This document shows, piece by piece, positions 1-64,000 of a DNA stretch of 64,000 nt (its first letter is position 1; every line of letters begins with the position of its first letter). The translations under genes and the position numbers were made by a program. The notes beneath the pieces are model-generated. The model saw nothing but the letters and a program-made list of their open reading frames with translations, ran no database searches and was not told the origin of the DNA. Source of the stretch: Bilabrum cf. latius. Lineage: Eukaryota. The stretch lies in NCBI GenBank assembly GCA_965178125.1, contig OZ237761.1:62001-126000 (forward strand), written 5' to 3'.

Positions 1-3000
1 CGATTGAGGCCTCAAGGGTTGCAGGGATAGAATGCAGTCCAGAGCCCGGAGCAATGAGTCCAAGGATTCCGGTGTCTCCGAACCTGCTCTTTTGCTCGAA
101 TTTCCCGTTCTCCAGCGGCGTGCCAGAATACATGCTTGGCCACAAGTGTAACGCCTCACGGTCTTCCTCCTTCGGCGGAGCAGCATGGCACCGAAGTTTC
201 ACCATGGCAGCATCGATCAGTCGTAGCGCCTGCCCCAAGGGACCACTAGCGATCGGGTGTTCGTCATCCTCCGACCCCTCTACGAGCGGGGAGCCTTTTG
301 AAACGGGCCGAGTGTCCAAGTCCTTCTCCAAGTATCGGATCAGTCCAACGAGGCCAGCTCTCTGCGTCTCATGCATGACACACTGCCGGTACACAACATC
401 GTCCAACATGCGCCACAGTCGATATCCCAAGGCATCAGTCAGTTTTTGCTCAATGGTCGCTTTCGAGATGACGTCGATGATGGCAGAAATGAGACTGATG
501 ACGTTCTTGACCATGTCCACCAGCCCCTGCATGATTGCAATCGCATCCCCTACAATCGGCGCCGCTACGACTGCCGTGCCGACGGCAGCACTGATGTCTG
601 CAGCCAAGGCGGAGATCTGTGAGATCATCTGCTGAACGGCGACAATTCCGGCTTCTGGACAAGCAGTGACGACGTGGTAGACGGCTTGCTGTGCCATGGC
701 TCTAGCCATAGGCCCTACGGCATGGACGACAGGCATGATAGCCGGCTCCAGAATGTTCTTTTGCACAGACTTCAGAACGTCCTTTGTCACATCCTTGGCT
801 GCCTTCTTGACTTCTTTCTCGATCGCTTCTTTGATTTCCTTCTTCACCTTGTTAACGACGGGTTCGACCCCTTTCTTCACAGATGTAGTCGCTGCCTTGA
901 TGGCGCTGTACGTCTTGGTGACGGAGGCGATCTGGCTATCCACCATCAGCTTTGCTCTCGTCAGTTCATCGGCACCATCGCTGTAGGCGCCGTCCCTTTT
1001 CTCCCAAAACTGCAGGTGCTGCGACATCCGGACCAGGTCAGCATTGTCATTCCCCTTCTGAAACATGGCTTCGCCAGCGCTGCGGAGAGTCTCCGCTCCA
1101 AACTCACGGATTGCCTCTGCATCGCTCTCAGAGAGGCTTCCCTGTGCTTCGCTGGACAGAGCGGACTCGACCGATGACTCTGACGGTGACAAAACACTTA
1201 GCTGCTGCTGCAGATGGTTCAAACTGGCTGAAGCAGCCGCCGGCTTGCAGTACTTGAGCACGTCGAAACTAGGGATGGATCGCCCACTCTCAAAGAACAA
1301 AGGCAGAAGGTTGACACGATCGGGCACCCACTTCTTCAAGCTTTCGGTCTCTTTGAAGCCGTCGTCAAATAGCTCCTCCCACTGGACCTCGAACAGTTTT
1401 TGGACATTCAAATTCCCGAGGTCCAGCTGTCTGCGGAAAGGGCTCGTGTGGTCCACCGGCTTCGTTTTCTTCTCATACTCGTTCGTCGCTAGATCGCCGC
1501 ACCAGTCCACGTATGCCTGCGAGAGCCTCGTCACGGGAGCGTTCAAGACACCGCCACTCTCTGCCTCCTCGAGCAATGCCTCAGCAAAACCGGCTCGGCT
1601 GAACTCCGGGTACGAGAATTGCGCGTCTTCTGCCATCAGCTGGATTCCCGCGAAGAGGTTCGTGACCATGTCGATGGTGATTGCGAACTAGTTCACCGTG
1701 TATGTCTCAACACCCGTCCAGAACTTCTTGCCCTTCGCGACCACGTCATGGATGGCACGCTTCGTCCATGAGCCTTTGCCTGTGGCCTCCCAGCCCTCCA
1801 CCTCGATACTTGGGGTTCGAAGCTTGTCGTAGCTCCCCCCCACGTAGAAGTCGAGCTCGCGCTTGTCGTCCTCGAAGTAAGATATCCTCTTGCTTTCGCG
1901 AAACTCGCCGTGTCCTTCGAAAATCTTGCGTAGCTTCTTGGTCGCACCAGTGCTGAGCAGGATTGGATTGGTCTCGATGTGCCGAACGGCCAGCCTCGCC
2001 TTGGCGGCATTCAGCCGCTTCTGCACGAAGCCCGCAGGACGAACGATGAGACCTGCCTTTGCAAGGACTTGCTGCGTGATGCGGTGTCCTCTGGTCTTCT
2101 GGAAGAACTGGATCAGTGACGCTCGGCCAGAGCCCCTGGCACCCCCCGTGCTAGCGTCGTAAGCTCTGATGAAGGCCACCAGGGCCTGCTTGACCTCTTG
2201 TGCGCGTATTTCGGCGTTGGTAAGCTTGTGGTTTGATTCCTTATCCGGCATAGACTCGAAGAGGGCCATGTGATGGCTTGCACCGCTCTTTGCGACCTCT
2301 TCCTTCACGAGGCTGTCGACTGCATCTTCATCTGCCCTTGCAAGCCGCGTTGTGCGCTTCGTAACTTGTTTGGCAGCCGAACTGATCGTATCGAGGACAA
2401 ACTAGACGGCAGCGTCAGCCTTCTGATCCAGTCTGGGTTCTTCAGGAGGCATGACGCCGTCGGCACACACGGCTGAAAGCACTGCTGCCTCGCGGTTGCT
2501 TTCGCTCTGATCGGACCATACCTTGTCCCGAAGATGCTTCTCCAAGGATGTACACAGCCTTTGCAATGTCTCCTGCGGGGCCATAGTTGACAGACCAACG
2601 AGAAAGAGGCTACTGTGGCAGCATTGACGTTTGGCATCACGAATACGACCCAAATTCTCACTGATACGGGCTTTGAGTACTCCATCATGTTCTTGGATAT
2701 CTGTCCAAACCTCCAGAACCCCAACATCCGGACAGCAGTCTGCTAGATGAAAAGAAACAAGACACTACGGGTTAGGATCTTGTGAGGAGCTTCGTGCAGA
2801 TCCTTTGTCCCAGTGTCGCATCATACTCACGTGACCAATCTGAATTATGGTTCCAACTGCTTTCATGAGAGCGGTCGTGACTTTGAGCCCGATGTTGATC
2901 CCTGTGATCGAGTACTTCACGACTTGAAGGACTGTCTCTACAGTTGCTAAGGCCGGCTCTCTTGCCTCAGTCTGGACCTGAAGAAGGGTATTGTTGGTGC

Positions 3001-3187
3001 GATTAGGCTCCATAGGATACATATTAGCCGTCCTACCAACATGATCAGTTCTTGTAGGAGCAGGAGCCGACTGCTTCGAAAAGCTGGCAATCGGCTAGGG
3101 TGCCCCTGCCAGCTGCGTATTCCCTGACGTTGAGCACATCAAGACCGCTGCTAGAGCAACTGAGATTTTAGCGTACATTGAGACCAT
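1..3187 (-). CDS. Large secreted hypothetical protein (>1050 aa, 3' end runs off the window); 4 in-frame TAG
   Basis: ATG at 3187 or 3178 is followed by a signal-like MYAKISVALAAVLMCSTSG. ORF pieces 2765-3022, 2402-2653 and 1688-2308, plus an open frame from 1687 to 1, are all in one frame, separated only by TAG (3095, 2765, 2402, 1688). No domain recognised. Confidence 0.75.
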
Positions 3188-3979
3188 CTTGTTGACGACC
3201 TCTTGGGGAAGAGTGGGATAGTCGTTTATGACTGCCTGCGTCAAGCCAGTCTGACTGTTCGTTCCAGAAATGCCTCACAATGCCGGCTCTCGATCGGAGC
3301 TACTGGAAGACTACTCCACTCACTGCAACTGCTTGGTCGCTGAACCTCCGTCGACTGATTTCCGAATCCTTTAAAGCGAAAGGTCAAATAAAGCGTGTCT
3401 GAGCTCACTAGGACCACGCGAGTCTCAGCCAAACGACCACGGGGGTGAATCCTCGCAAGAGGACATGTCACATGGGGCATTCGGACAGCCTGCCAACAAG
3501 GCAGCTGTGGGCAGGAGGGCAGCGAAGGGTGTGTGGCTTGGTTTTGGAAAGTATATCGCGATCACTGCGCAACAATAGCATGTGCGTTAACTCCCACCAG
3601 CCAGAGCTTCGCCCTTGTGAATGCTCCACTCTCCTTCTCTACGGCGCTAGTCGTACCCTCTCATGGGCACTCCGGTCTACCGCGCTACTTGCGGCCACTA
3701 GCACCACTGGCACCACTGGTACTCCAGCCCGGCAGCCTCTCGCCTCTAGACCTTCACCTCAAAAGCTGCAGACCCGTCAGCACGACAGCCATGGCAATTT
3801 TGATTCCGAATACAACACAGCCTCAGCACTGCCAGTGGCCCGCTGCATCCACGGGGGGGCAGCCCATGGGCGCCCTGGGGTGCGCCTTGCTTTTCAACTA
3901 TACCTATCTGGCCCACCCAATCATTCACGATCCCTCAACCATCCTTACACCCCTCTTCCCCCCTTCGAGGCACGCAGGA

Positions 3980-6900
3980 TCAGCCCAGTCTGCCAACCAG
4001 CTTCAGTTCCCCGCTCGAAGCCCTTAGGATCAACCTCGTCAACTCCTCGCCCAGCCTGCTCCCCGGCATCTGCAGCCTCCTGCGGAAATCGAAGTGCCAT
4101 GCTTGCAGCTCCGATTGCAGAACGACCTTCCTCTTCAGCATCTGCACGTCCACTGGGTCCAGCACCGCAAGTAGCTCACGCGGGATCCACCGGAGTCTGG
4201 CACGGTCGGCAGGAGACAGGTGCGCTGCACCACCCGCGGCATCCTGGCGCGATTTGGGGTGAGTTTGGGAATCAGACGCTTCAGGCCATACGTACGCATA
4301 CGACCCAGTGCCTGATGCCTCCCCGAGAGGTGATCCGAATCCATCTTCACCATCCATCCGCGGCACCGCTCTGCCTGTGCCACCGGCGCCGCCCCGCTCC
4401 GTCCGGGCACGCTTGGAGGGCGGTAAGCTGGACATGACTGAGCCGGACATCTCGCTGATCTCGTCCAGATCCCAAATCCGACCTGCAGCCGTACCATGGC
4501 CTGGATCATCGGAACGCCTGACGCTGCCGAAGCGGTGCTCCATAGGCATGGGCTGCAGCGTGCTCATGCCGTGGCCTGCGCCAGCTCCAGCTGCATGAGA
4601 GCTGCTGCTGCTGCTGCTGTTGCCAGCACCAATCATTGCACTGCTTGACGATGACGAGACACCTACTACAGCGCCGGCTCCATACGCCGATCCACCACTG
4701 CTAGCACCTGCACCGTGTGCACCCGGCATCCCCTCCTCGATCATGGCCTGCTGACCACTTGCATACCCCGGACTCAGGAATCGCGATGACCCCGAATATG
4801 GCAGGCCCAAGGACGGTGCCTCCACGTATGTATGTGTGCTTCCCCGCGGCGGGTCCATCCTGTGTGTGTCTGCTGCTGAAATGGGACGGGTGAGTGCCAC
4901 CTCACCCGGCTCGAATCCACCCCACGATCGGGACTGCTTCGACTCGCCGGCGCCAGCATCGAAACCCGCAGAGGGAGAGCCGAGCATCATGGGCTGCATC
5001 CCATGTGACGCAAGAGAGGACGCATCGTCATTGCCGGCGCCTTTGCCGGCACCATCATCGAGTACCGAGCCGGTTCCCAAGGAGCCAAGCGCCAAGCTCT
5101 AAGGGCTGCCTAGGGCGAATCGCCCGGCGCGGTCGGTGCCCTCCCCTGCTGGCATGTGCAAGTTGCTACCAGCAGATCCGGCACTGGGGCTTCCACTGGC
5201 CGGAGTCTGCATCCAATCGTGGCCTGGACCTGGACGAGCTGCGGTGGAACTACCGGCTTGCAATACTCCAGACGCAGCACTTCCAGGTCGGCTGCTGGTC
5301 GAGGTGGCAAGCATCGCGGAAGCCCTGCCGCGTGGCAAGCTGGACGCATCGTCGGCGATGTTGCCTTGGTCAGTGGCCGCTGATGCGCCAGAGGATCCTT
5401 GTCCTGATGATGACGAAGGGTCATTTGACTGTACGCCATCCATAGGGACCGATGCACCCGACGACTCCTGTCCAGAGGAAGGGTGACTCGGATTGTGACC
5501 CAACATTGCCTGTTGGCTGGACAGTGGACCTGCTTCTGAGTGCTGAACAGATGGCTATCCAAAGCCAGATGCCAGAGGCTGTACGGATCCGTCACTACCT
5601 AAAGCTGGCGGTTTTGTTACGCGACTATACCAAGTTTGTCTGGTCGAAAAAGGTTGAGCGGGTCCCTACTTCTGCTTCGCTTCAATGGTTTCTGCGGCGG
5701 CCCAGCACCATGGCAGGTAAGGCCCTTGGGTCCGTTGGTCAGCAAGGCCACGGAACTCCCCGAGATGCTCCTCTTTACTCGGCAAACTCTCCCAGTTCTT
5801 GAACTGCCCGCACAGCGCCCTCGGTACAGTGCCTACCCAGTCGGAAACAAGCTCAATTTCAACGTAGAAGAGCACCGAAGCAAGACGGTTGGCCACAAAG
5901 TCACCCGGTGGCACTTTCTCCTATTCAAATTGCGGGGAGACTCGGGGTTCGCATTGTTCGATGCCTGTAATTTGCGACTCAGATGAGAAGGATCCTGACC
6001 CTGTTCCTGTTTTCAATCGTGCACCCATTGCCATTCCGCCCGATGCCGGCCCAGAGTTACTGCTCGCCTTCGATGCACCAGCAGATGCGTGGTGCTGAGC
6101 CTGAGCCTGCGCGAGTCTCTCACCGACGATCGCAACCGCTTTGCGTGCCGCACTGGTGTAGGATTCGCCCTGTTCCTCCACCAATCCGACAAACTCCATG
6201 GCCTCCTGCTTTGCCTTCTCAGACACGAAGAAATGCCTGCACATCTGAGCAGGCAGCGTGAACGTCCTTCGCCTGCCGATGATAGCTCCCAGCTGGCTGG
6301 CGGACTGCAGCATGGCGCTGATCGGGTCTGTCTCCATCGGCTGGTCGGCCGTGCCCATGTACGCCACCGCCACCTCCTCCTCCCCGCACACCATGCCGAG
6401 AGTTGCCGCGTTCACGAATAGCTGCATCGGCTGCAGAGTGAGCATATTGTAGGTTTGCCGCATCACTAGGATGGGGGACCGGCTCAGCTGGTCGAACATG
6501 AAGGCGTCGTGCGCCTGAATCTGGTAGGCATTCTGCAGCTGGAGCGCTTGGGGGGGGTAGCACAGGCCGAGCGCCATTCGGCAGCAGCACCCCGTTCGCA
6601 GCCGACTCGATGGCCGGTGGCACGAAAACGGTGCGGTTGTAGTCCTGGCCAAGCAAAGCTTGCAGTCCTGGGTGCGTGGGGTCCTGCCGCACCGTCATTA
6701 GGAGACCGCCCCTGCTGTCGATCTGCATCGTCAGCATCGGCTGGGGCATGGATAGTGCAGGTCCAAGCGCCATTAACTGACGGATCTTCAGCTGCTGCTC
6801 CGCGTACGAGTCAGAGGAGGACATTCCGGGCAGTCTAGGCCGCGATCGAAATTTTTTTCTACGGGCAGCTTGATACGGGCCACCGCCCGCAATGTTAAGC

Positions 6901-7601: not shown

Positions 7602-10600
7602 ATGAAGCGTGGCCGGCCCAACCGTGCCTACACCGGTGGAGCGACTATGACAACGAAGCAACCTCCATCACGAAAGGGCCATATTTCGGCCTGCCTGGCC
7701 TGCAAGAGAGCAAAACGTTCTTGCTAGGATGCTCGACCTTGTCCACGCTGCATGCGACTTGGAATCCCGTGCGTCGACGTGTTGGATCGCAGGAGCAAAG
7801 CGTTTCGGAAGATACAATCCAGCGGCGGTAGCGGCGATACCTCCTCTGCTGTAGTGCTATCTGTGCACGGTAAACTTGATTCAAAAGCCGCATCAAATCG
7901 TTCTTATTTGTCGATTGGAGCTCGGGAGTCTCTAATTGCTGCGGCTATCAACGGTTCGGATCATGTTGCGTAGGAGCCGACATCGTCAGAGGACTCTGCT
8001 CGGTGTGGGCACAGCGAGCTATCAGAAAAGTGGGGTCCCTCGGCGCAGGCAGCACCCGTATCAATGCAAGCAGTGCTAGTTCCAAATGGCTCTGCGGCTG
8101 CTAGTCCACCGCAATCTACCGGCCAGGAACTTGTACGATCCGGCGCTGCAAATGCCATCCAAGCCCTGGCCCCTGCCTTCTCGCCGCGTCAGCTGGGCGC
8201 TCGTCAGATCATGTCCATCCGCCCCCCGCGCCCATTGTCTCAACCCATGCTCACAGTGCAACAGGACAGTCGCGGGGGCGTGCTGCTGACGGTGAGGCAG
8301 GATCCGGTCCACCCCGGTGTCGCTGCCCTCTTCGGGCAGGAGTACAATCGGTCCTTCTTCGTGCCTCCAGCCATCGAGGCGGCGGCAAACGGGGTGCTGC
8401 TTCCCGGTGGCTCTCACCCTATACTACCTCCGCACGCCTAGCAGCTGCATTATGCGTACCAAATGCAATCGCATGATGCTCATGTAGTGGAGCAGCTCAG
8501 CCGGTCTCCTCTGCCGGTAGTGCGATACACCCAGAACCTGCTCACCTTGCAGCCAATGCAGGCTTTCATGAACGCAGCCACGCTTCAGATGGTGTGCGGG
8601 GAGCCAGGGGTGGAAAAGGCATACCTCGGCAACGTGCGGCAGATGATGGACATGGGGCCGGTCAGCTCATTCACTCTCTCCGCCAACCAGCTGGGAGCCC
8701 TCATGGGCAGGCACAGGGTTTGCAAGGTGCCAGGTCACATGTGCAGGCATTTTTTTTGTGTCTGAGACGGCCAAGAAGGAGGCCATGGAGTTCGTCAGAC
8801 TGGTTGAATAGGAGGGAGAATCGCCTGGGAGGGCTGCCCTGCTGGCTGTGTAGGGAGGCGAGGAGGCGATAGCTGCGGCTGATAGAGGCAGCAGTGGTTT
8901 GGCGGGGCGTGGGGGCTGCAGCGTGGCGCAGCAATTCGATTTAGCCACACCAACGACAGGGAGCATGGACAGTCCTGCTCCGAAACAGGGCCAGTGTTAG
9001 GAGTCGGCAGGAGTCAGCGGTGCCAACGCCTTCGGGCCAGCCGGCTCATATGCAGCACAGCCGGACGAATGGGAAATACCCAAGTTCCTGGCCGAGCGGG
9101 TCGCCTCAATTCCATTCAATTAGGAGATTACGGTGACCGTGGACTGGGTGGGTACCGCACCTCGAGCGCAGTGCGGCCACATCACGCACTGCGACCCGTT
9201 TCCCCGCAAAGAGGACTATGAGGCTGAGTTCAGGGCGCTGGTGGACAGGACACAAGAGGGACCCTTCCTGCCGTGGTGCAGGTGGGATCGATCCAGAGGT
9301 AGGAAACGAGGAAGGGGAAGCGGAAGGGAAAGAGATGGTGGGGATTGCGTTGGCATCACAGCTCCGACAGGCGTGGCATCAGCGCCGTCATCGAACCCAC
9401 TGGTGCCTCGAACACAAGCAGAAGCCGGACGCCGTACCATTCGTGCCGGATTCTAGACCAATGACAGGTCCTACGAAGCCAACGCACATGTAGGGCAAGG
9501 GCAGCTATCAGCGGCCATTCGTACACACGTGTATGCTGGCACCGAGCCAGCCTTTGGTGCCTATACATGTTTAAGCGCGGCAGGCGAGTCTCTGCGGAGC
9601 TGGGGCGAGTCGGACAGCACCGACGGGCAGGGCGTGCTCTTGTCTCCTCCAAGGGACCAGCTGAGTCCGCGTGCTGCCTCCCCTAGTGGCAGCCTGGGGT
9701 TGGAGAGCGAAGCACATTTCGGCGCAGGATCGGTCTAGGGCAGTCCTCGCGAACAAGACTCGGTTCCAGGCAGTCCCATCATCTGGGGGCGCGGTTCCCC
9801 GGGCAGATCAGAAGGTTTTGATGCTAGTGGAGGCCCTGTCTTTAGCCCAAGCGCGATGGAACCGTCTATGGTGGGGTCGTTCTCGGGGTAGGTGGGCAGC
9901 ATTGGGGGTGGCACGCCACCGTCCTGGGGAGGACTCGAGCCGGGCCAGGTCACGCTGACGAGGCCAATGACACCAGCAGATGCCCACAGGGAGGACAGAC
10001 CGATGGGTAGTGCAATTACGTATGTGGAGACCGCTTCGAACGGGTTGCCGTTCTCCGGCAGCATGCGGTTCCTGGGGGAGAGCCACCCACTCGATTCAGC
10101 TGTCTATGCCACTGCAGGTCGCGGAGCTCCGATCGGCAAGGGGGGCATTGAGGCTCGGGGAGGTGTTGAAACAACAAACAATAGTAGCACGAGCGGCAAC
10201 GGTGGCGCCGCAAATCTCGCAGGCGTGGGTGCGGGCTTGCTAAATCATGACCCAGTCACGTATGACGCAGTTGGAGGCTTGGGCACAGCAAAGAGTCGGC
10301 AGGGCAGTGCCAGCGGGAGCGAGACAGGCAATCAGTGGCAAGGCAGTGATTTGGGTGATTCCATGAGCGTGATCTCTGGCGTGTCGAGCCTACCCCCTCC
10401 CAAGCGAGCGCGAAAGGAGGCTGTGAACGGTGGAACAGCGCAGTCCAACGGCCGCCCCATGCCAGCGGAACATGATGTGGCATCTACAGCGGGCCCAAAA
10501 AGTCGTACGAGGCCTAGTGGTAGGGGCGGCAGAGCTGAGGCTAGCAGTAGCAATGTGCATGAAGCTACATACTTGGTGCCTGCTACAGGGGATCACTCAA

Positions 10601-10902
10601 TGGCTGCTTCAAGTCTCGCAGCAACTGGTGGGTCCGATTGTGCAGGCGCTGCATCGGGGCCAGAGAAGCGAGTGCCTAAGGTGGCGGTTCCGGGACTGAG
10701 CCCAGAGCTGCTGGCAGTGCTGGACCCTGTTGATATACACATGATGGAGAGACGGGTGATACTGCAGTCAGAGCTGCAAGCATGGCACTTCGATTTCCGC
10801 AGGAGGCTGCAGATGCCGGGGAGCAGGCTGGGTGAGGAGCTGACGAGGTTGATCCTGAGTGCCTCGAGGGGGGAACTGAGGCTGGCTGGCAGACTGGGCT
10901 GA
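7602..10902 (+). CDS. Zn(II)2Cys6 transcription factor-like protein, paralog B (about 1099 aa); 10 TAG and one apparent +1 homopolymer frameshift
   Basis: ATG at 7602; ACLACKRAKRSC*DARPCPRCMRLGIPC with TAG (7725) inside the zinc cluster. Colinear similarity to paralog A throughout. The T run at 8750-8757 has one extra base. Ends TGA after GRLG, as in paralog A. Confidence 0.8.
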
Positions 10903-11309
10903 GGTTGAAATGGATGAATCATTGCACAGTTTGAATTGATTATCCTGTTATGTTTTCCTCATCCGTGGGGTCCCACAGGCAGGAGGGGGGGGGGGTGTCG
11001 GGGTGGTTGTGGTTTTGATCTTCTTCTTGAAAGTTCAACACGCGACGACCCTCGGCCCTCTTCGGTCACTTCGCGCACGTTTCGCAGGCCTTGTGTCACC
11101 ACTTTACTGAGAAACCGTAACCACTGCATGCTCCGCGTTCACAATATTTTCCGAAGTTCCCTAATCCCTGGTGAAATTGACGGCACCTGTCTGTGTACTA
11201 CTGACGGCACCGCACCGCACCACGGGTCCAAACCACACGCTATCTCCGAATCGCTCCACGCTGCACAGACCCCAGCCGTGTGGCACATACAGATTCCCAA
11301 AGGACGCCA

Positions 11310-48430: not shown

Positions 48431-48740
48431 GTCATGTGGAAACTAGTGGTGCATGCTGAACATGCGTGATTCAGACTAGGCTAGCGTGACCGCCGCCTGG
48501 AGCAAACTTGGCAGGTGTCGCTGGCGACTTCGAGCAGTCACATGCAAGCTTATAGATCGTTTGCAGACACTCTTAGTTGCGCATATGGATCTACAATAAG
48601 ATTTGCATCGTGTGATGGCCCTCATACGTCGAGAAAAGTACAAGAATTCGGTTTTTCGTGGTTCGTACTCGTCACCGCCGGCCGCCACCACAGGCGGCCA
48701 CGAGTCGCAAAGAAAGCCCCACATCTACCCTCGGACAAGC

Positions 48741-50425: not shown

Positions 50426-50935
50426 TAGCTCTAGCTCGCGGCGATGATGACACGATGAGTGGAGGATGGCAAGCCCACAGAGGTGGGCGAGGGCCCGAGT
50501 GGAGATATTGAATTCGGGGCGCATGCACAGATACTAGGACCTAATGTTTTATTATTGCAGCTCTACTTTCTAATTCTAGACGTGGCAAGTGCGACGGTAA
50601 CGCTCTATGGCAGTTCACGATTGGTGTGCACCCATTAAGCACGGCCAGTTTCTTTAAGACCAACCCACGCTCACCCAAAGTATGGCGGCAGCAGCTGGCG
50701 AACCAAAATTAAGACGTGCCGTTCCTGGCTTTGGTGACATCAGCCATGAGAAAGCGGGCTCTGTGAGTAGGGCCAACCGAGAACCGTGCGATCCGGATCT
50801 GGGGCACTGACACTATGACTACCTGGGATTCATCTTGCATGGGCGTGGGGTCATTGCCGTGCACTTCAGCAAAATCTATATTGACTCCACATAAAATTTG
50901 AACCGGCTGAAACCCCCGTCCTGCGCAAACGACCC

Positions 50936-53900
50936 TCAAGGCTGCGTGATAGCCTCGATTTTCTCCGCCGCTCGCTCCCTCCCGCCTCCCACCGCGTCTC
51001 CCTCGGTCAGCCCAAACAGCGCCGCCGTCGCCGCATCCGCTGCGCGATCCTGCTGCACCGCGGCCTTGCGGGCCGCCTCGTACCACTTTGACCACTCCGC
51101 CTCGGCCGCCGCGCGCTCCGCCGAGTCGCGGCCCAGCAGCCTCTCGGCAGCCTTGGCCGCTGTCTCGTCCTCCTCGGCCCCGACCATCCACGGAGCCTGG
51201 TCCGAGAGGGCCACCGCAGCTGCTTGTTCCGCATCCGATTGCGCGGCGCCACTTTCACCACCTCCGTCCCTCTGCGCAGCCTGCTGCAGGGCCGATCTGG
51301 CCAGCGCTCCAGCACCTAGCGATCGAGCGATGTCCACGGGTACGGCCCGCTCCATCTCCTCTAGCTTCGCGAGGCAGTAGATGGACCTGCACCTGAGCTT
51401 CAAGGAGGCCAGAGCCTCGAGAGACGCCTGGTCCTTGGCGCGACCCAGAGCGAACACCTTCAGTCCTTCCGCGGTCGTTCCGGGGTACGATTCCGAGAGC
51501 GTGAATCCCTTCTGCGTGATCGGCTCGCGGATCGCGAACTCGCGCAGTGCCATGCGCACCCGCTCCCCCGCGCGCAGCATCCCGCTGAGGTCCTCGCTGG
51601 TGGACACGAACGGCAACCCCTGCGTCGCAGAGGCCTGTCCCGGGAGCAGGAGACCCGCCCCGCCGCCGGTGATGACCCGATAGGCCACCACGCCATCCTC
51701 GGACCTGCCCCCGTAGGCCTCCGAGAGGGTAAGCCCCTTGGCCGTGAACGGTGTGACGACTGCGTATTCCCGCATGGGTCGGCCTTCCTCCGTGTAGGTG
51801 ACCCCCTGACTCAGTGTCAGCGCTGTCAGCTGGGACAGCGGCAGGGAGTCCACCCCGGGGCCCCACTTGCCCCTGCCCTTGGAGGCACGGACCAGCGCCT
51901 GCCTCGCGTCGCGGACCCTGTCCCGAAGATCCGAGCCGGAGGCACCGCCGTGCGATGTATCACCATCTCCGTCACCGGTTGCATCGGCAGCCTTTGCCGC
52001 CTGCTCCACCTCGGGCGTCCCGCTCACCAGCTGCACCACATCCCCCACGCCGATGGATCCCCTTAGATCCACACCGTCGTCAGAGACGGCCGCCCACGGG
52101 CTGCCCTCTCGCACGCTCAGGCCCACGGGCAGCCTCACCCTCCTGACGATCCGGGCCCCGCCCAGCCCAGTGGCAGAGGCATCGGGCCAGGGAACAGTGA
52201 GCCGGACGAGGTCCCTGGACGGCGGCTCCGCGACGATGAGCATCTGCTGACGGCCCACCCTGAGCGCATCCCCGGTGGACAGCAGGCCGGTGAGGTCACT
52301 GGTCGTGCTCAGGAAAGGACTGCCCCGGATGGCGTGGAACGCGCCGGGCAGCAGCGCGAGCAGGATTTCACGCTCGGTGCCGCCCTGCCCGTCCTTCTCG
52401 GGCGCAGGCGGCTGGGGATTCAGGTTGAGGAAGAGCGGCTGCGCGCTGCCGTCCCTGCCTTGGAACTGGCTGTCCAGCAGGATGTGGGAGGGACCGTACG
52501 GCAGGCCCCCGTCCTGGCCCCTTTGGGCCACCCTCAGACGCCGGTAGTCACCCACGCGGAGCACCGTCCCGGGCTGCACGAAGTCTCTCAAGTCGCACGA
52601 CGTAGACACGCGGGCGCTACCCTGTTTCACGGAACCCACGCACGGTAACATCCTGTACCCCGTGCCGTGCAGCGGCTGCTTTTCCGCCGAGCCTGCGGCG
52701 TGCGGCTGCACCGTCTGGAAGCCCCGCGCGGACACGCCCACGCCGAGTGAGGACAGGCCTCCCAGCTCGTCCGCGTGCCTGTCCTCCGGGCCGTTGTTCC
52801 CCAGGCCAGTCATGGCACCGCCGCCCACGTGCATGGGTAGGAACGGCCCAGCTACAACCTCATCTCCCGGGACCAGCTTTCCCCTTAGATCCGTGTTCGA
52901 GGCCACAACTCTGCTGCCTTGTTGCAGGTCAACAAGCACGCCGGCGGTGGAGACTGCCTGCAAGCCGCGGCTGCGCACTTCGCACTTGCTGCAGCCACGT
53001 TTGCCTGGCTAGTCTCCCTTCTCCCCGCCACCCGAACCGTCCTCGTCCTCGTCCTACTCCGACTCTTCTTCCAGCGGCCCGGCGAGCTGGAACCCCGTCC
53101 CGCCGATGACGTCACCCTCTTGCCCGTCCTTGGGTACCAGTGCCACCTGACCAAGGTAGAACAGCAGGGGCCCACCTTCGCCACTGCTGCTACTTGCGCC
53201 CAGCCGCAGCAGCTCGCCCGGCCGCACTTGCCCCCTAGGATCCCTTTCACAGATCGCTTTGGACTCGCCGGGCCCCACAGAGCACACGAGTGCATCGAGC
53301 CCGCCCACCGCAGCCGCCCCATCCTCTTCGCCGCTGGGCAATACCCCGAGAAGGCGCTCCCCCGTGTGGAAGAACCACGGCACGCCAGCGCGGCCCTGCG
53401 CAGATGGCACCATGGAGTCCTGCCCGCTGCTGCCATCATCGGAGCCTCGCACCAGCAGTCCGATGGCGGTGAGTGGCACATGAGCCGGTGCCCTCAGCAC
53501 GATGTAGTTGCCATCGTCCTTGCCCTAGTACGGCCCGATGTGATCGATCACTAGTCCGAATGCGCCGCCGATCATCACAATATCGCCAACGCCCAGGACT
53601 GCGCCGACGTCTGCCGTCGACTTGCACTCCACCCGCACACTGACTTCGACGTCCCCCGATCCACCAACATGTTCTCCGGACTGGTCTTTTCTATTCGATG
53701 CGGCCATCTTGCTGCGCAGGACACCCACGATGCGCACGTCGCCAGGCAGCACGCGGTACGGCAGTTTCCTGCCCTGCGCCCTCTCGTTGTCCTCCCCGAC
53801 CCATGCCTTCCGATCCAAGTCAAACCCCGCCGCGTGCATCGCGACGGCCTTGCGAGACCCGTCTATTCCCCCCCCTAGCATTGTTCCTTCCATTGCTACC

Positions 53901-55321
53901 GCGTGCGGGATGGACTGCTCAATCTGCAGCACATCCCCGGTCTGGATGAGCCCCCTGATGTCTTTCGTGGAGCCCACGCTGAACACGCCCCGCTTGACGA
54001 TCAGGAAGCCGGGCAGCAACGCCCCGCCCAGCCCCTTCCCATCCCCAAACATGGACGCTGCAGCGTTCCGCACCGCCGCCACCACGTCATCCACGCGGAC
54101 GCCCACGGGTCCAGGACTCGGTAGCGCTTCCCTCTTCTGGCTCTATCCCATGGCCATGGACGGGTCAACGAGGAAAACAGGCAGCCGCTGGGCCCCTCCC
54201 CTGTGGACGTCCTCGTTGAGCAAGAAGCCCTCACTCGTCACAGGGGATGCCACAAGGTACACCCGGGGGTGCACCGTGGGCCCGTTCCATATGCCATCGC
54301 TGCCCTTGGTGTCTGCATCCGTGCCTTCCACGCCCTTGCTAGAGGCGCCCCCGCCCAGCCCCACCCAAGCCAGCAGCCCCCCGCCGCCGCCCTTGCCCTT
54401 GCCTGTGCCTCGAGACCCGTGCAGACCTTGTTCCTCCATCTCGAGCACGTCTCCAAACAGAACGATCGCGTCTCCCTGCCTCAGGCTCTTGGTCGGATCC
54501 CCCACAGTCACGCGGACCGCGCTGGCACCATGCTGGACGTCGGCCAGGAAGGGCAGCGGTTTCAGGTTTGTAGCCCACAGGCGGTGCAGCAGCTTGTCTT
54601 GCAGCGGAAACGGGGCCAACAAGGTAAATCCAGCCGTAATCGGCGCGGATTTCAGCACAAGCGGCACTGCCTCGGCGATTCGAATCACGCTCTTGCTCTT
54701 GAGCAGCGTGGGCAGCTGCGAGCTGCTGGCACCCAGCCCGCTGAGGTCACCAGAAGACGAGATCCAGGGGGATTGCCTGGTCGCATTAATATGCCCTGGC
54801 ATAGGTATTTCACGGTACAGCGCCTGAAGATTGCTGCTGACGCTTAGCTGCGAGCTTAGCAACCCGCACGCTTTCGCCAACGCTGACAGCTCGCCGTCAT
54901 TCCCTCGAAGCTGTTTTCCACTTATGCTTGCCCCTACCGACGCATCTGACTGCAAGACCTTAGTTACTGCGTCTTTGGTGCATGCTGATTCGCTTTCGGA
55001 GCTTGGAACCTCGCGAAAGCGCTATGTCTGCAACTACGAATTCCGTTCACTAGACCCCGACCCTGCATCCGAAGGGGTGATTCCTCCCGCTTGATTGTGG
55101 TCAGATAGGTCTTTCCTATGCCTGTTTTCCATACGCCCGCTACTTATCCCCGAATCACCCACGAGAAGCACAGCTTCGGCAGAACTTGGAGGAGCCAGTG
55201 TGCGCGCAGTGGCACTTGGCCTAGAAGTCGATGCATCCATGATCATTTGTTGATTTTCTCGCCTCCATCCAGCAGTACTACCAATCCAAAATATAAATGC
55301 TACAGAATACAACGTAGACAT
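50936..55321 (-). CDS. Large secreted protein (1461 aa) with about 9 dispersed copies of a beta-rich module; 6 TAG
   Basis: Signal-like MSTLYSVAFIFWIGSTAG. Five track ORFs share one frame, joined by TAG (55034, 55022, 54143, 53525, 53054, 53009). Repeated LP..V..G...V.T..DL.G....GD.L.VG motif. Ends TGA. Confidence 0.75.
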
Positions 55322-56448
55322 GGCTTTAATCGATTGTGTGGGACACTGCTTTTTTCTGGCAACCTATACCAGTTCTTTGCACCTTACATTCCGAGTCGCT
55401 GAGCATCCGGAGTGAATATTATTATTTTTGCTCCCGATGCTCACCAAGGGTTGTGCCAAAAGATCTGACCCCATCATATGAATTATCTTTCTATATTGGT
55501 CAGTCGCTTCGCAGCTCGTCAGAGTTCACGTATCCTCCAGGCACCCCGTACTGCTGCCCAGCCTGGCAGGCTAGTCCAACCCTGCTCTAGCGCTGGCTAC
55601 CGCCGTGGCAAGGCTGTTGTTTCCAGCTGCCCCCACAGTCAAACTATCAAAGTCCTTCTGAGTGGCAACCACCAGGGGGGAATGGATTCTCGGGGCGGAG
55701 CTTAGGTGGCTCCGGCTACTGGCCCATTGAAGCCGAAGCGTGCAGTTTGGTTTGGTAGTTTCTGGGCTTGCGGTCCAGACAGATGCGAATCCTTTAGAGC
55801 GTCCACTTTTAAGAAATTTTTGCAACCTATTAGTGCATATGGCATATCCCCCCCCCCCCCCTACATGAATATATCGTCACACGCTGCAAGGAGCACTCCT
55901 GCACTGACCCACCAGCAGAGGCCTGCCCACCACTGGCAGGTACAGCCCTGCGGAGCACCCACCGGATCCATTGACGGTGCAGGCAGCATCAATCGCGATC
56001 TGCTCCTAGCCGTTCGCTTTTCCCAGATATTGAAGCGGTCCTGGGGGATATTGGTGATACAGGGTCTGCTGCTGTGGTTGGGTGCGAGGGCTTGTCCCCC
56101 AACAACCTGCCTATTGATCTCTGCTCTTGTTGATTCAGGGCAAGATTCGCAATACCCAGGGACACTCTTCGCTTGCCGCGGGCCACCCGCCCCGGATACC
56201 CTACCGTCCGTAATAACGTTGATTGAGATACCCTACCGCCCCGAAAACCCTAGGTCCGACCCAGAATCTGCACTTTACCCCAAGATGGACCCCCGGATTG
56301 GATTGGCCCCCATTCCGGGGGTGGGGGGGTTGAGTTTCACTTGTCAAGTTGGAGTAGTACCCGGAATTTTCGGGGTACGGTACCTCGCAGGTGTGCTCCG
56401 GCATTTGAAAACACCACGTCACACGCTAGCTCGCCATACTTACAGCCA

Positions 56449-57204
56449 ATGCCGCGCTCAACTGGGCCATTCTGGATGCTGATGCTTGCTCTGGTAGCAA
56501 ATATGGCGCTCGCTTAGACCGATGACGGGTTCGCTGATGAAGACGCCGGTGATGACTCGGAAGACCAGTCTCCATTCACAGCAGTCGTCGGAGCCCTATT
56601 TGCGGCTGCTGGTTTGGTACCACCTCTGTATTTGTACTTTTATGACCGTGTACCGGAGTTGCTCCGTCTCCGGGACGAAGGTGAGACAAAGACGGCAAGC
56701 GTGCTGAAAGACCGCTACAGCACCTCAACAAACGGGCAGGGCGGCAGCTCTACGACGTACTACCTCACGGTACAAGTTGACGTAACCTCGGGAAAGGAGG
56801 GTTGTGTCAGAGTGGAGAAAGAGCTGGTCGTGTCTGCAAAGGCGTTCAAGCGCGGTAGGGATTCTCGCCAGCTTGATGTTGTTGTCCTTCCTAGCGAGCC
56901 CCTGCACATGATGGAGGAACAGGAGTGCCGCAATATCGGAAATAATTTCGGGTGCAACTGCAAAGCTGTGTCGTTCTCGCTTTTCGGTGGGGTGTTTATC
57001 GTGGGCGGCATCGGCATGTCGATGTTGCTGCTTTCCAACTCTGGCTGGGAGCTTGCACCCACAATTGCCACGATCGTTGCACTGCTGATCGGGTTTGCAG
57101 GAATGCCATTCATGGTTAAGAGATGCATCAGATAGTGCGCTGATTCCATGTTCGAAGGTGGCTCGGTCCGGCCAGTCAGCCAGGAGCAGGCAGCGGCCGT
57201 GTAA
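56449..57204 (+). CDS. Small membrane protein (signal peptide, TM, beta-rich domain, 2 TM; DUF3592-like layout); 2 TAG
   Basis: Starts MPRSTGPFWMLMLALVANMALA*TDDG. In frame with ORF 56614-57135. Reads through TAG 57133 to TAA at 57202-57204. Confidence 0.65.
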
Positions 57205-57629
57205 AGCGGAGTCATTGAGTTTGCACGGGCTGCGCAGCAACAAGTATTGGATTTTTTGTTTCGCTATGAGTTCCGATGGGTTTGTGCTTGAGCCTGAACG
57301 TTCCAATATCGGGTAGTCGTGATAGGCTACCATGGCCTTCATCACCAATGAACCAATGCCACTGGCAACACAGGTAGCCGTGAATGTATGTAAACTTTTG
57401 GTGATTTCGTCCACGAATGCTCATCCAATGTAATATAGCTCACCAAAGCCAGCAAACACTGATGCTGAATGACACAACAGTGCCTCAACAGTGCAGTGAA
57501 CTTGCCATGTTCTGTTGTGATGACATGTATTGTTTTGCAACACATGATGGTGTTACGACACGCATGTATGCCAAAGCATCTGATTCAATTATTCACTATC
57601 TACATTTTGATCGACCAGTCGCTTTGCAG

Positions 57630-58893
57630 CTCGCCGAGAAAAGCAAAATTCGAGAACGGAGGATTCGATGACTTCACGAACCTAGAAGGATAGTCCCAAG
57701 GCGGCCCTCCAGTTGTACCCAGGGTAAGTATCCGTCAGCTTAGTTTGCCATCTGGGGAGGAGTTGATCAAAGGTGGCCGACCGTTCGTTATCACGAATGC
57801 AATGGCGGCCTGGAATACCGCTAGCTTGCATCCGCACAGGCTCTTGAAGCGATTCCCCCGCACGGTCGTTGATTTCTACCCCAACAACCTTGATTCAGTA
57901 AACAAAAAGCCTATGCTTATCCCGATGACGAGGGCCCTTTCAGGAATGGCCCGGGCTTCCAAGGCAGGCAAACCAGCCTACATCCACTGGCGGCTGGGGT
58001 TGAAAGAGCGAGACGTCGTCACGCAGAGCGCATTCCCGCTCCCAGAGGTGCTGCAGACCGACTGGTGGCTAAACGAGTGCCTCAATAGCACGGAGGCGCG
58101 CAACAACATGCTGCTTATCTGCGCCTTCAACATGCTCCTCGTGGGCAACGACGGCGCCGGCATGTTCCTGCACTTCGACAGCCTCAACACCGGCACGTGG
58201 CAGGCGCAGCTGCACGGCACAAAGGAGTGGATCCTGTGCCACCCCAGGGGCAGGCGATTCTTCTACAGTCCCGGGGAGGTGGACGCATTCAGCCCCGACC
58301 TCAAGAGGTACCCGCTCTTCAGTCGCGCCCTCGAGGAGCACTGCACGAAGGTGAGCGTGGGGCCAGGCGAGATCATGTTCTACCCCTCCAATTGGTGGCA
58401 CCAAACCCGAAACGTGGGCTACCCCGTGGTGGGACTCGTGGGACGAACCGTGACACGCTACAACTACGACGCTGTACGGTCCGCCGTGGCGGAGCAGTGC
58501 AGCAACCCGGGCCCAGACGTGTCGCTTGCATTCCCCGGTGCGGCTCCGAATCCTATTCCCGAGCTGTGCGAGGGCATCGGGAGGTGCCACGCGCAGTGGG
58601 AGCGGCATTTCAGCGCGATGGAGGATGTGACGGGCAGGAGGGCTGTTGCGGTCGCGGTCGGGGGTAGAGGTCTCAACGGACATACGTAGGGATTGCCGCA
58701 CTGGAAAGAACACGCTGACCGTGCCTGCCAGGTGCATCCGCAGGAGAGATTGTCCTGCCACGGACCACAAACCAAGCTCACCTGCGCCCAGGCGGGGTGC
58801 TGCTGGGGCCCCACCGCTGCGAATTGCTCCGAGGTGGGCACGGTGGATCCCGTGAGCCAGCGGTGCCCATGGTGCTTCGGTCCCGTCGGGTGA
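57630..58893 (+). CDS. JmjC/cupin-8 2-oxoglutarate oxygenase with C-terminal trefoil (P-type) domain; 5' end unresolved; 2 TAG
   Basis: JmjC motifs RPFVITNAM, FLHFDS, GTKEWIL and PGEIMFYPSNWWHQT. After TAG 58687: CQVHPQERLSC..C..AGCCW..PWCF. Ends TGA. Confidence 0.8.
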
Positions 58894-59001
58894 ATGTATC
58901 GGCTTTCATTAAGAAATGACGTGCCGATTGATTGCCGCTGGCAGTATCGGCCACGTTTCTCGCGTCCCACTCGGAGGTGCCAGCAGCCTCTGGTTGGCCT
59001 C

Positions 59002-59077
59002 TGCAAGCATTCTTCTCCTTGCAAGCATTCTTCTCCTTGCAAGCATTCTTCTCCTTGCAAGCATTCTTCTCCTTGCA
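59002..59077. repeat. 18-bp tandem repeat (TGCAAGCATTCTTCTCCT) x4, intergenic
   Basis: Four perfect adjacent units with no spacers. Confidence 0.95.
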
Positions 59078-59707
59078 CGTGGCACCGTGGCGACCTGACT
59101 GGGTCAGCTCGACCACGTTGCTCTGTGTCTGGCTACCCCAGCAGAATTGTATCACGCGCCGCGCCTCTCCACTTCGCCCTGCGTTGCACCTATAGCTTGT
59201 GAGTGACAGCTGCACGGCTGTGGGGTGGCCAGACGCGGCAGCGCATGAGCCAACCATCTTTGGGCTGTACACTTGTTGACAGTATCGACTGGAGCGACTT
59301 ATCTTAGAGGAGCCTCTGTTCCTGCTCTACATCAATCAGTACCGTTACGTGGCTCTGACTGTGCCGTCCTGTTCAGGCACACGGGGCGCCCTCTCAATGG
59401 GTTTGGCGACAGGGGCATCCAGCAGTGCGACAGGTAGATCTAGTAGTGCGTACAAGAGCGGTGCTTCGACATCGGTTTGCTGGCGAGAGTACGAGGCACT
59501 TCAAGCCAGACCAGGTCCATACGGTCGAGAATTGATAATCATGCCCCGGACAGCAGCACCCTTGGGACACATGTCTGCGCCCCGCTGCGGGCCCCCGGAG
59601 CGGATCTGCCCCTCAAGCTGTGAGCTTGCGCGTTACTTAAGGAGTTAATCAGATTACCAGGTCTAGATTCATTTCCCCCCGTATTAGCCAAAGCATAGCC
59701 TCTTCCT

Positions 59708-62700
59708 ATGGTAACCGAAGGGACCATTGAGTTTATAGATGAAGTCAGGTAGGACTTACCGAGGGAAAGGAGGAAATACATTGTCGTTGATCATGGAGCC
59801 CCAGCTGCAGAAGTGCTGGATCAGATCAAAACAAAATGGGACTTCAAGGATGTACCAGGCGAGTTGTACAGTATAACAGGTGGTGCCGATCTTGCAGGTA
59901 TGTCTCGCGATCACCAGGCTGCTTTTGTGCACGGAATAGCAGCCGCAGTTGGCTCCAACGGATCATGGGTAATCACAGGAGGCTCGGACGCCGGAATCAT
60001 GCAGCTTGCTGGAAAAGCACATTCTGATGCAGCATTATATTCACCGTGCATTGGAATCGCAGCATTGGGCAAGGTGTTCAATACTTCCGAGGAGATCCAA
60101 CAAGTCGATGAAGGCGGCGAGACTCCTATATAGTATAAACTCTCTGAGCCCCCTTTCAGGGGTGCTACCAAGGAGGAACACAAAACCCGACTGAACCCTG
60201 ATCACACGCATTTCATTTTTGTTCGACCTCCTGTAGGACGAAAAATATCGAAGTGGGGGGACGACAACAATTTTCGCGAGGCCCTCGAAGGGGAGATCGC
60301 AAAGACCGCCTTCACGGTGCAGGTGGTCGCAAGCGGGGGCCCCGAGACCATGAAGACCGTGTCCAGCGCGGCCCATGCCAAAATCCCGATCGTGCTTTGC
60401 AAGGGATCTGGGCGAGCCTCTGACGTCCTCTGCAAACTGAGTGCCCATGCTGAGCATTTGAGCGAGTTGGACGACTCGTGCCCCCGCGGCTGGTGCCCGG
60501 ATGGCGCCAAGCACACTGCAGCATTGATGGGCAAAGATCCCTATCAAGACTCAAATGTCAACGTTTTCGATCCGATGAGCATAGAGGTCTGGAAAACAAC
60601 GAAGCCACTCACTGCGTGCATCCCTGGCAAAGTGCTACAATGGATGGCGACGAGGTCAAATCCACCAAATCTCGACGATTTCGACAAATACTGTGCCAAC
60701 GGATGGGGCGCATGGACAACTGCCAGTACGACTTATGAAGATTGGCTGGACAGCCATGTGCGGTCGCGGCCAGTTGCTGCTAGATCTGGAAACGGGCAAG
60801 AGGCAGCCGGGCAAGCGGCAGACAGGCAAGCGACAGGCGGGCAAGAGGCAGACAGGCAAGAGGCAGACAGGCAAGAGGCAGACAGGCAAGAGGCAGGCGA
60901 GCAAGAGGCAGGCGAGCAAGCGGCAGCCAGGCAAGAGGCAGACAGGCAAGCGGCAGGCGGGCAACAGGCAGACAGGCAAGCGACAGGCGGGCAAGCGGCA
61001 GACGGGCAAGCGGCAGACAGGCAAGCGACAGGCGGGCAAGCGGCAGACGGGCAAGCGGCAGGCGGGCAAGCGGCAGGCGTGCAAGAGGCAGCCAGGCAAG
61101 CGACAGGCGAGCAAGAGGCAGGCGAGCAAGCGGCAGCCAGGCAAGAGGCAGACAGGCAAGCGGCAGGCGGGCAACAGGCAGACAGGCAAGCGACAGGCGG
61201 GCAAGCGGCAGACGGGCAAGCGGCAGACGGGCAAGCGACAGGCGGGCAAGCGGCAGACGGGCAAGCGGCAGGCGGGCAAGCGGCAGGCGTGCAAGAGGCA
61301 GACAGGCAAGCGACAGGCGAGCAAGCGGCAGCCAGGCAAGAGGCAGGCGTGCAAGAGGCAGCCAGGCAAGCGACAGGCGAGCAAGAGGCAGACAGGCAAG
61401 CGGCAGACAGGCAAGAGGCAGACAGGCAAGAGGCAGCCAGGCAAGAGGCAGACAGGCAAGAGGCAGGCGTGCAAGAGGCAGCCAGGCAAGCGACAGGCGA
61501 GCAAGAGGCAGGCGAGCAAGCGGCAGCCAGGCAAGAGGCAGACAGGCAAGCGGCAGGCGGGCAACAGGCAGACAGGCAAGCGACAGGCGGGCAAGCGGCA
61601 GGCGGGCAAGCGGCAGACGGGCAAGCGGCAGGCGGGCAAGCGGCAGGCGGGCAAGCGGCAGGCGGGCAAGCGGCAGGCGGGCAAGCGGCAGACGGGCAAG
61701 CGGCAGGCGGGCAAGCGGCAGGCGGGCAAGAACCAGGCGGACATCGGCATCTAACCAATTCAGATATCGAGAATCTTTGGTGCTGGTGCGTGCATATACA
61801 CCTCCTGCACATGGGTGCGATCCTTCGAGTCAAGCGTAGGGGCGATGAAGCAACGGGTACGTGGAATTCAACGCGGCGAAGCAGTATCACCCACCGCGTT
61901 ATGTCGAGAGCTGCAAGCACCCCTAGTGCTCCTTCGGGGCACTACTCAAGCATTCGCATCACGCCCGACATGAACGACGACAGTCTCAAGGTCAGGGACA
62001 CGGTGCGCGAATCCCTTGTCGCAATTGCCTTCGATAGCCCGCTTCGACGAATGTCGGATGACCAGCTCAGGCCAGAGTTTGCGGAGGCATGGTCCCTGCT
62101 CATGAGAGGCATGCAGGCCGTGCGGCTTGGCACCTTAGTGACCGTCGACCTGTCTCTGGTGTCATCTTCGTTCGTCAGATCGATGTCTTCTCATGGGCCG
62201 GCACCAAGCCCATCCGATGGTCTCGGGGGTTCAGATCTGCAAGAGCTTTGTCGCGTCTTATTGCAAGAAGGTGCTGCCACTGCTGCAAATGGTGACAATC
62301 CGATAGGCCAGCATCGACCGGCATCTCAAGTGCAGCCTTGCGAGGCACACCGACTTCCTGCGACTGTAGAGTTGCTACTGCAGTGCAAGCAGCCATTAAC
62401 TTTGCAGGAGGCCATGGCAAGAGCGGCGTTGATTGGCAAGGCAATGAACCCACCACAATCAGGTAGAGTTGGACAGGGGAGCGGTGCAGCATCCGCCCCC
62501 CGGCCAAGCCCATTCGAGATGGCCGTCCGATGGAACTGTTCGGAAACGATTCGGGCTTGGTTGCGCGGAACACTGCAGACGACTAGCAGCTCCTCGAGGA
62601 TGGATCCGGGTACTTTGCTCGTTATTCAACTCGGCTTAATCGATGCTACTTTGCGCGATGCTGGTGCAGTAGTAGCTTGCATTCTGCAAGAGTGTACAGA

Positions 62701-64000
62701 ATTCGTGGAGGTGCTTTATATGGTCGACAACCATTGCCTTCAGTAGCTGGCATCACCGAATGGTGCATCTGAGGGCGAATCACCTACCAGGGAGCGGAGC
62801 GACACAATGTGCAGGGATGATTGGAAGCAGCTCATTTCGCAGCGCAAGTGGGAAGAATGGCTCCCAAGCATCAATACATCACACTTCTCCTGCTTGGAGT
62901 CAACAGCTTGGAGTATGCACTCTGCTGACGAAGCAAAGGAATCGGTTCGGTTGTTGTGGGCTCTGGTGAATCGCAAGTTCAGCGTCGCTCGTGTCTTCTG
63001 GAGGTACTGCTCCGAGCCTCTGCGGATGGCTCTGTACGCGGCACAGGTTCTGCGGAAGCTAGCAGGCACGGATGATGCAGCGCGCACCATGCTGCTGAGT
63101 GAAGCGGACTGGTACGAACGGTTTGGTATATAGGTGCTCGAGCACGGTGGTACTAGCAGGGACTTCCGTGGGTGGGACAAAAAGGATCGGCAGAACGTTT
63201 CACTGTGGCTTAGGTCCACAGCACCGAGGTCTCAAGTGATATGCGATGCCATTCTTCAGTAGTACTCGGTGTCAAAACACATCGAGCATGGTAGGTGCTG
63301 TTGGTACATGTGTTGGTCTTGCTGTCGGGATATGCCGTCTTGCTGTCAGAGTTGTTTCTGCTGTCGGGATGGCCTGACTCAGGTGACCCGCCTCCACCGC
63401 GGCTCAAACATCATCCGATTGGCTCAACGCTCTGAGTCAATGGAGTTTATGGGCCATCCGGTGGTGCAGAGGCAGCTGCGATGTCTTTGGCGACACAACA
63501 CTTGGGAGAAGCCATCGGGGGGACTGACCACAGTATGGGGATGCTGCCGAGTATGGGACTGCTGTGCAAGCTAGGACTATTCTGCTAGGAACAACTGGTT
63601 TAATGCACCACGCACGCGGTGCTGGTTGCATTCGATTTCTCGGGTTGCCCTCACTATCCTTCATGCTTGGGTGGTTCTTCAACACTACGATGAGCCGCGA
63701 GCTCGGCTATTTCTTCCCATTCTCTTCTTCGTATGGAAGGGCCTGCAGCTTTTGGAGGACAGTCTAGTTGCTGCTAGGCTGGGCATCCACGACATCTCCG
63801 TGTGGGATGCGCTTGGTACTCTTGATTACGCGGCAATGTTTGTAAGCCTAGGGCTGTTCACGGCTGCTGGCATTGGTGACAATGGTATCTTGCACGACTA
63901 TTCGATGGATGTGCTTAGCGTCTCGTTCATTGTGGCGTGCATCCGTCTCCTGGACATCCTCGCAGTCATAGAGTTCTTTGGCCCGATGGTTATCACCATC
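59708..64000 (+). CDS. Second TRPM-like channel paralog (3' end beyond the window; a further upstream exon is possible); at least 6 TAG
   Basis: Motifs GTIEF, SITGGADL, WVITGGSDAGIM, LNPDHTHFIF, GGPETMKTVSSA, WALVNRKFSVARVFW and TM RLLDILAVIEFFGPMVITI. TAGs at 59750, 60131, 62744, 63131, 63260, 63572. Confidence 0.85.
60794..61740 (+). repeat. 15-bp coding minisatellite (about 63 units) encoding Q(E/A)A(D/G/A)(R/G/E) pentapeptides
   Basis: Units such as gcaagaggcagacag and gcaagcggcaggcgg, in frame within the TRPM-like paralog. Confidence 0.95.

Follow-up and report, generated by a model that had tools for sequence, protein, structure and literature searches.

Nuclear genetic codes that split UAG from UAA are rare; the two papers drawn on here (PMC11687900, PMC5304391) name one fornicate, one rhizarian, one green alga, and a few ciliates. 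A change of UAG alone to glutamine has been reported for Iotanema spirale (PMC5304391) and for Protocruzia tuzeti and two phyllopharyngean ciliate lineages (PMC11687900), and it arose repeatedly and independently among ciliates. Here, we have analysed a stretch of 64,000 nucleotides of contig OZ237761.1 (64 kb, referred to as the window), in which 19 of 20 genes carry TAG codons within their reading frames. With high probability, the window belongs to the GC-rich, intron-poor nucleus of a stramenopile whose cytosolic translation now reads UAG as glutamine instead of stop, while termination is left to UGA, used in most genes, and UAA.

The codon table of the window is that of I. spirale (Fornicata), namely UAG for glutamine with UAA and UGA as stops, the pattern of NCBI table 15. 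I. spirale, however, is an anaerobic metamonad that terminates primarily at UAA, whereas the window is stramenopile-like, has a guanine plus cytosine (G+C) content of 60%, and 17 of its 19 complete genes end in UGA. P. tuzeti and the phyllopharyngean lineages display the same change of UAG alone to glutamine, but the ciliates concerned have a G+C content of 27-54% and a preference for UAA at termination, and the best matches of the window are stramenopiles. A G+C content of 60% and termination by UGA are an unusual setting for this code. UAG alone was also reassigned, with UAA and UGA kept, in the rhizarian exLh and in TARA phyllopharyngean ciliates, but to leucine; leucine is reported for a rhizarian and other ciliates and serine for Scotinosphaera (PMC11687900, PMC5304391). 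In the codes of NCBI table 6, stop codons became glutamine codons as in the window, probably through a suppressor derived from tRNA-Gln, but UAA is sense there and a stop here. Table 6 is used by many ciliates, ulvophytes, Hexamita, Streblomastix, and Amoeboaphelidium.

The longest stop-to-stop open reading frame (ORF) of the window has 932 residues under the standard code, and frames of 3432, 1529, 1459, 1136, 1091, and 1006 residues are obtained once TAG is read as sense. Reading TAA as sense left the 10 longest ORFs as they are under the standard code, and with TGA as sense the longest ORF reached only 951 residues. The codon census covered 17,056 codons in 22 ORF segments belonging to 20 genes, each taken to start at its first ATG; these starts are crude, and LSm5, UBC13, the 5' exons of PDX1, and the upstream exons of an ankyrin-repeat gene are modelled in part only. 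The census revealed 82 in-frame TAGs, with at least one in 19 of the 20 genes, the sole exception being the main PDX1 exon; a separate count in 18 long ORFs gave 80. TAA occurred twice and TGA 17 times, each time as the terminal codon of a gene, so that no internal TAA or TGA was found, and TAG was needed as a stop in none of the 19 complete genes. The two off-frames of the same segments contain 114 and 108 TAGs, 51 and 48 TAAs, and 304 and 326 TGAs. Since the off-frames are rich in TAA and TGA and the reading frame is free of both, but not of TAG, selection has purged the two former codons and spared the latter. No frameshift was required across these ORFs, and TAGs lie within the Pfam envelopes of Sulfate_transp, LSDAT_euk (in two TRPM-like genes), SRCR, GH39, and RecA. 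This is the pattern of a sense codon and not of decay.

A first-pass annotation of the window had arrived at about 79 in-frame TAGs in 19 of about 22 genes, had seen no in-frame TAA or TGA, and had argued against pseudogene decay; our counts bear it out on all three points. Its preference for a change of UAG alone over the code of table 6 stands as well. The same genes contain 207 CAA and 481 CAG codons, and this ratio, together with 82 TAGs, would lead one to expect tens of in-frame TAAs if TAA also encoded glutamine. As none was found, TAA is not reassigned, and we rejected the code with both UAA and UAG for glutamine, in which the two genes ending at TAA would likewise have no place. Two further TAGs, one following the residues VTE in LSm5 and one following MLKG in PDX1, were dismissed as coding positions because both fall in 5' splice sites.

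The residue inserted at UAG was judged from alignments of three genes, which are arranged as follows.

26939-29878, plus strand: SulP/SLC26 sulfate permease with STAS domain; 5 TAGs, one of them at the glutamine of the PQA motif (VPxALSYA)
48732-50425, plus strand: RecA with an N-terminal presequence, three exons and GT..AG introns at 48882-48970 and 49217-49408; TAGs at 49208, 49214, 50111, and 50174; stop TGA
20616-22596, minus strand: GH39 glycosidase b with a PAN domain, two exons (20616-22079 and about 22012-22440); 3 TAGs, in the conserved 5' exon

For the permease, 120 best homologues were aligned, 118 of which have a residue at the PQA column. There, the TAG within VPxALSYA is matched by glutamine in 108 proteins and by glutamate in 10, leucine and serine being absent, and three solved SLC26 proteins also have glutamine. 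Cafeteria roenbergensis, the closest named relative, likewise carries glutamine in its SulP protein where the gene of the window has this TAG. Three TAGs lie in the conserved N-terminal half of the permease; the columns of the other two are variable and read K29/D20/N19 and G80/A13/S11. For RecA, we used 74 of 80 bacterial loci after dropping six without the Walker-A anchor motif. Exon 2 ends in AQAxKx, and its first TAG column is occupied by glutamine in 74/74 of these proteins, while the second one is variable (K18, A13, N11, Q8). The RecA proteins of E. coli and Mycobacterium also have glutamine at the first column. The two invariant or nearly invariant positions are found in conserved cores, one beside the Walker A region of RecA and the other inside the PQA motif of the permease. 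In the 5' exon of GH39b, aligned with the 150 best library representatives, the second TAG column is mixed and the third shows glutamate in 93 of 134 sequences and glutamine in 6.

Log-odds for each residue were summed over eight columns, with a pseudocount of 5 and standard background frequencies. Glutamine reached +2.05 nats, followed by serine (-6.6), threonine (-7.2), glutamate (-7.3), lysine (-9.0), and leucine (-12.1), so that glutamine leads the next residue by more than 8 nats. Judging from these comparisons, UAG most likely encodes glutamine, as had been proposed from the letters alone. Other genes were considered as sources of residue evidence and set aside: the two paralogues of unknown family, the two TRPM-like genes, and GH39a and GH39b are too divergent from each other for the residue at TAG to be read, the TAGs of an AFG1-like gene lie outside its conserved core, the match of a GFA-like protein ends ahead of its TAGs, and those of the TRPM N-domains sit in variable loops.

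Further support was obtained from public sequencing runs, four of which were compared with positions 45600-60700 as assembled contigs, not as raw reads. Run X1 displayed long contigs crossing intergenic DNA, for instance 45600-55998 with 0 differing letters, and is DNA-like. Run X5, from a separate study, yielded pieces of gene size. Its record 10 covers 48732-48881, 48971-49214, and 49407-50262 with 0 differences and leaves out two stretches, of 89 and 192 bases, that have GT..AG borders; these gaps are the two RecA introns that had been predicted beforehand from the protein alignment. Because the record skips two GT..AG introns, it comes from spliced mRNA. All four RecA TAGs are intact in it, the one at the end of exon 2 being rebuilt across the junction, where the last two letters of the intron equal the last two of the exon. 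UAG is thus retained in the RecA transcript, a point that the first-pass annotation had left to be checked, and both editing to CAG and splicing-out are excluded for RecA; removal of TAGs by either route in other genes is unlikely. Among the 25 TAGs in 45600-60700, the pieces listed cover 24 in X1, 16 in X5 (17 with the junction TAG), and 10 in X7, and no alternative letter was seen in these three runs at any covered TAG. Run X8 contributed a few identical low-depth pieces next to unrelated RecA-like contigs. Outside this interval, positions 26858-29878 were recovered nearly complete from runs of three studies that carry three coded organism labels, and in part under a fourth label.

As to the mechanism, the logic known from other codes is that the anticodon CUA pairs with UAG and not with UAA, and that the N-domain of the release factor eRF1 is altered, with T32G in Iotanema (PMC5304391). 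By analogy with the UAG-only codes, the organism would possess a tRNA-Gln whose anticodon CUA differs by one base from that of the CUG isoacceptor and which reads UAG and not UAA. Its eRF1 may recognise a third-position G less well or no longer at all, with the reading of UAA and UGA retained. A search of the 64-kb window with ARAGORN and Rfam found nothing, and hence no tRNA gene.

Several observations weigh against this reading of the window. No more than eight TAG columns could be aligned, and the two near-invariant ones supply most of the signal. The third SulP TAG column is glycine in 80 of 118 homologues and alanine in the Cafeteria protein, and the first column of GH39b holds leucine in 114 of 145 sequences and glutamine in 1. 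Neither a tRNA nor an eRF1 gene is located in the window, the mechanism being deduced from other codes. One AFG1 TAG sits 3 codons before the TAA stop, and some stop function of TAG may remain. Moreover, run X5 is labelled 'RNA? (probably DNA)' and none of the matching runs is registered as RNA, so that the evidence for RNA consists of one spliced contig and of gene-sized pieces. The leucine and glutamate prevailing at the GH39b columns, and the 10 glutamates at the PQA column, would be in line with a sense codon for another residue, such as leucine, glutamate or serine, read by a CUA tRNA that was recruited from another isoacceptor family; each of the three is known for UAG elsewhere (PMC11687900). 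Solved bacterial xylosidases show L, E, and E in this exon. The first GH39b column, however, varies near the window's protein, reading L, M, L, A, A, S, S in the seven nearest homologues that have a residue at this place. Neither leucine nor serine occurs at the two conserved columns of RecA and SulP, and serine, glutamate, and leucine all have negative summed log-odds. Leucine in particular was rejected, as it sums to -12.1 nats and is favoured by only one of the eight columns. Another residue is therefore improbable in our view.

We rate as more improbable still that UAG is ambiguous, mostly glutamine and in some genes a context-dependent stop, as in the ambiguous codes of Condylostoma or Blastocrithidia type and in codes that have no dedicated stop. 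The TAG close to the end of AFG1 would fit such a code, as would one 15 codons before the TGA of the GFA-like gene, and a sample of 64 kb is too small to demonstrate that TAG never terminates. On the other hand, 19/19 complete genes reach TGA or TAA, TAGs are spread along the genes, including 12-13 in a single frame of 3,432 codons, and context-dependent termination is unnecessary where dedicated stops exist. Least credible of all, with hardly any probability left to it, is that the TAGs are not translated and result from decay, assembly or sequencing errors, editing to CAG, or unrecognised introns. Nothing was found in its favour, the one formal loophole being the lack of a run registered as RNA. 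It is opposed by the presence in frame of a single stop type, 82 times against none for either of the others, by the absence of frameshifts, by identical letters in contigs from runs of different studies, by the four TAGs of the contig spliced at two introns, and by the TAGs in the conserved cores of RecA and SulP. Glutamine at UAG, with UGA and UAA as dedicated stops, thus remains the reading that we prefer.

With regard to the host, the best match of the SulP protein was that of C. roenbergensis, which scored 515 bits and is 55% identical across the transmembrane half, followed by a next match of 380 bits. Aligned end-to-end, the two proteins are 42% identical over 967 residues, and the aligned part takes in a transmembrane-domain insert as well as a motif in the C-terminal extension which they have in common. 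A quick maximum-likelihood tree, built from 47 SulP proteins, placed the protein of the window as sister to Cafeteria plus two metagenome proteins, with 96% support in the Shimodaira-Hasegawa-like approximate likelihood ratio test. The main exon of PDX1 is 93% identical to protein P0241, and its best 120 matches include 10 named ones, every one of them a stramenopile (labyrinthulids, oomycetes, and ochrophytes). In the PDX1 tree, the window paired with P0241 alone (99), the deeper nodes showing no resolution. A homologue search with AFG1 found bacterial ZapE proteins as best matches, at 41% identity, and provided no lineage signal. As judged from two single genes, the host is probably a stramenopile related to bicosoecids and outside the sampled Cafeteria group. 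It is probably neither a fornicate nor a ciliate, in agreement with the earlier remark that the organism does not resemble the fornicate and ciliate users of UAG for glutamine. The Cafeteria genome is GC-rich and intron-poor, like the window, and presumably uses the standard code.

A search of the full-text literature, with subscription journals and supplements outside its scope, found no nuclear stop-codon reassignment in stramenopiles; the code changes that turned up there, via cited references, were mitochondrial ones of Labyrinthulea. The first-pass annotation had suggested a possibly independent and undescribed origin. The pattern of UAG alone for glutamine was already known, and the searchable literature has no nuclear case from stramenopiles; the independence is based on the two single-gene placements. 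What is new is probably an independent origin in a stramenopile-like lineage without a recorded case, and not the code table itself. We lean, by a narrow measure, towards the stronger statement that the window presents the first nuclear reassignment of a stop codon among stramenopiles and an independent origin of UAG for glutamine in a bicosoecid-related flagellate of 60% G+C with almost UGA-only termination.

If this is true, the direction of mutation pressure is of interest. At 60% G+C it should favour UAG and not erase it, so the change would argue against codon capture by AT pressure and for an ambiguous intermediate or a route in which the release factor changed first. With a stramenopile case, the codes splitting UAG from UAA would extend to another major lineage, and its GC-rich, UGA-terminated setting would offer a contrast for testing ideas on stop reassignment and on how eRF1 discriminates UAG from UAA and UGA. 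The relative bearing P0241 would, in that case, allow the reassignment to be dated. In practical terms, annotation under the standard code fragments nearly all genes of the organism, here 19 of 20, and proteins predicted from it in public databases are probably truncated. The 93% identity of P0241 by itself suggests that public data contain sequence of a close relative.

The window is gene-dense eukaryotic nuclear DNA with few spliceosomal introns, and its G+C content ranges from 55 to 63%. Pfam families identified in it comprise two TRPM-like channels with SLOG/LSDAT N-domains, SulP/SLC26 with STAS, ornithine decarboxylase, an AFG1-like ATPase, and RecA, further two GH39 glycosidases as well as AAT-like, DUF268, ankyrin, SRCR, and Cupin_8/trefoil proteins. 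PDX1/PdxS, a UBC13-like E2 enzyme, LSm5, and the GFA-like protein were recognised from smaller ORFs. Besides the three genes given above, the following features were recorded.

2-3274, minus strand: ORF of unassigned family without Pfam match, continuing beyond the window edge; 4 in-frame TAGs
3980-6694, minus strand: protein without family assignment, paralogue of the gene at 8647-10902; 4 TAGs, stop TGA
8647-10902, plus strand: protein without family assignment, paralogue of the gene at 3980-6694; 7 TAGs, stop TGA
11205-14615, plus strand: cysteine-rich protein, secreted or membrane-bound, with SRCR domain; 10 TAGs, stop TGA
14826-16865, minus strand: DUF268 protein; 3-4 TAGs, stop TGA
16892-18637, plus strand: GH39 glycosidase a; 1 TAG, stop TGA
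18641-20320, plus strand: AAT/C45-like protein, for which a search for a solved relative found none; 2 TAGs, stop TGA
22938-25355, plus strand: ankyrin-repeat gene of several exons; 1 TAG, in the last exon, stop TGA
25727-26413, minus strand: GFA/CENP-V-like protein; 3 TAGs, stop TGA
30636-31998, plus strand: PDX1/PdxS, three exons including a micro-exon of 15 nucleotides at 30882-30896; 0 coding TAGs, stop TGA
33365-35785, minus strand: ornithine/diaminopimelate (DAP) decarboxylase with long inserts; 1 TAG, stop TGA
36392-46690, minus strand: giant TRPM-like channel (SLOG/LSDAT N-domain, TRPM2-like domain, ion-transport domain); 12-13 TAGs in a single frame of 3,432 codons, stop TGA
46832-48748, minus strand: AFG1-like ATPase; 4 TAGs, stop TAA
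50936-55525, minus strand: protein of 1,514 residues without family assignment; 7 TAGs, stop TGA
56227-57204, plus strand: small membrane protein; 2 TAGs, stop TAA
57469-58893, plus strand: Cupin_8/JmjC-like protein with trefoil domain; 2 TAGs, stop TGA
59624-64000, plus strand: second TRPM-like channel gene, continuing beyond the window edge; 6-7 TAGs

The paralogues at 3980-6694 and 8647-10902 lie in divergent orientation and share conserved N- and C-terminal blocks, with a Pfam match in neither. The micro-exon of PDX1, flanked by an intron on each side, encodes GVIM, and the joined exons rebuild the conserved MLKGGVIMDVTTPE. RecA begins with a basic presequence (48732-48881), and its nearest bacterial matches are alphaproteobacterial, with at most 74% identity over exon 2; both features would fit a mitochondrial RecA. 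The giant TRPM-like channel revealed long low-complexity inserts, including a (Gly-Ala)n run that stems from a repeat at about 45321-45523, and the second TRPM-like gene carries a long tandem repeat rich in Gln, Ala, Asp, and Gly with 76 CAA codons.

Near-identical sequence was filed under four organism labels in four studies (runs X1-X8), pointing to one organism or to a frequent culture companion. In run X1, a second contig covers 59812-60700 with 10 differences from the window, 8 of them non-synonymous, 2 synonymous, and 0 at a TAG; it probably represents either a second copy of the TRPM-like gene, as a paralogue, or a diverged allele. Finally, an X1 contig has one C more than the window after the intergenic position 55847.

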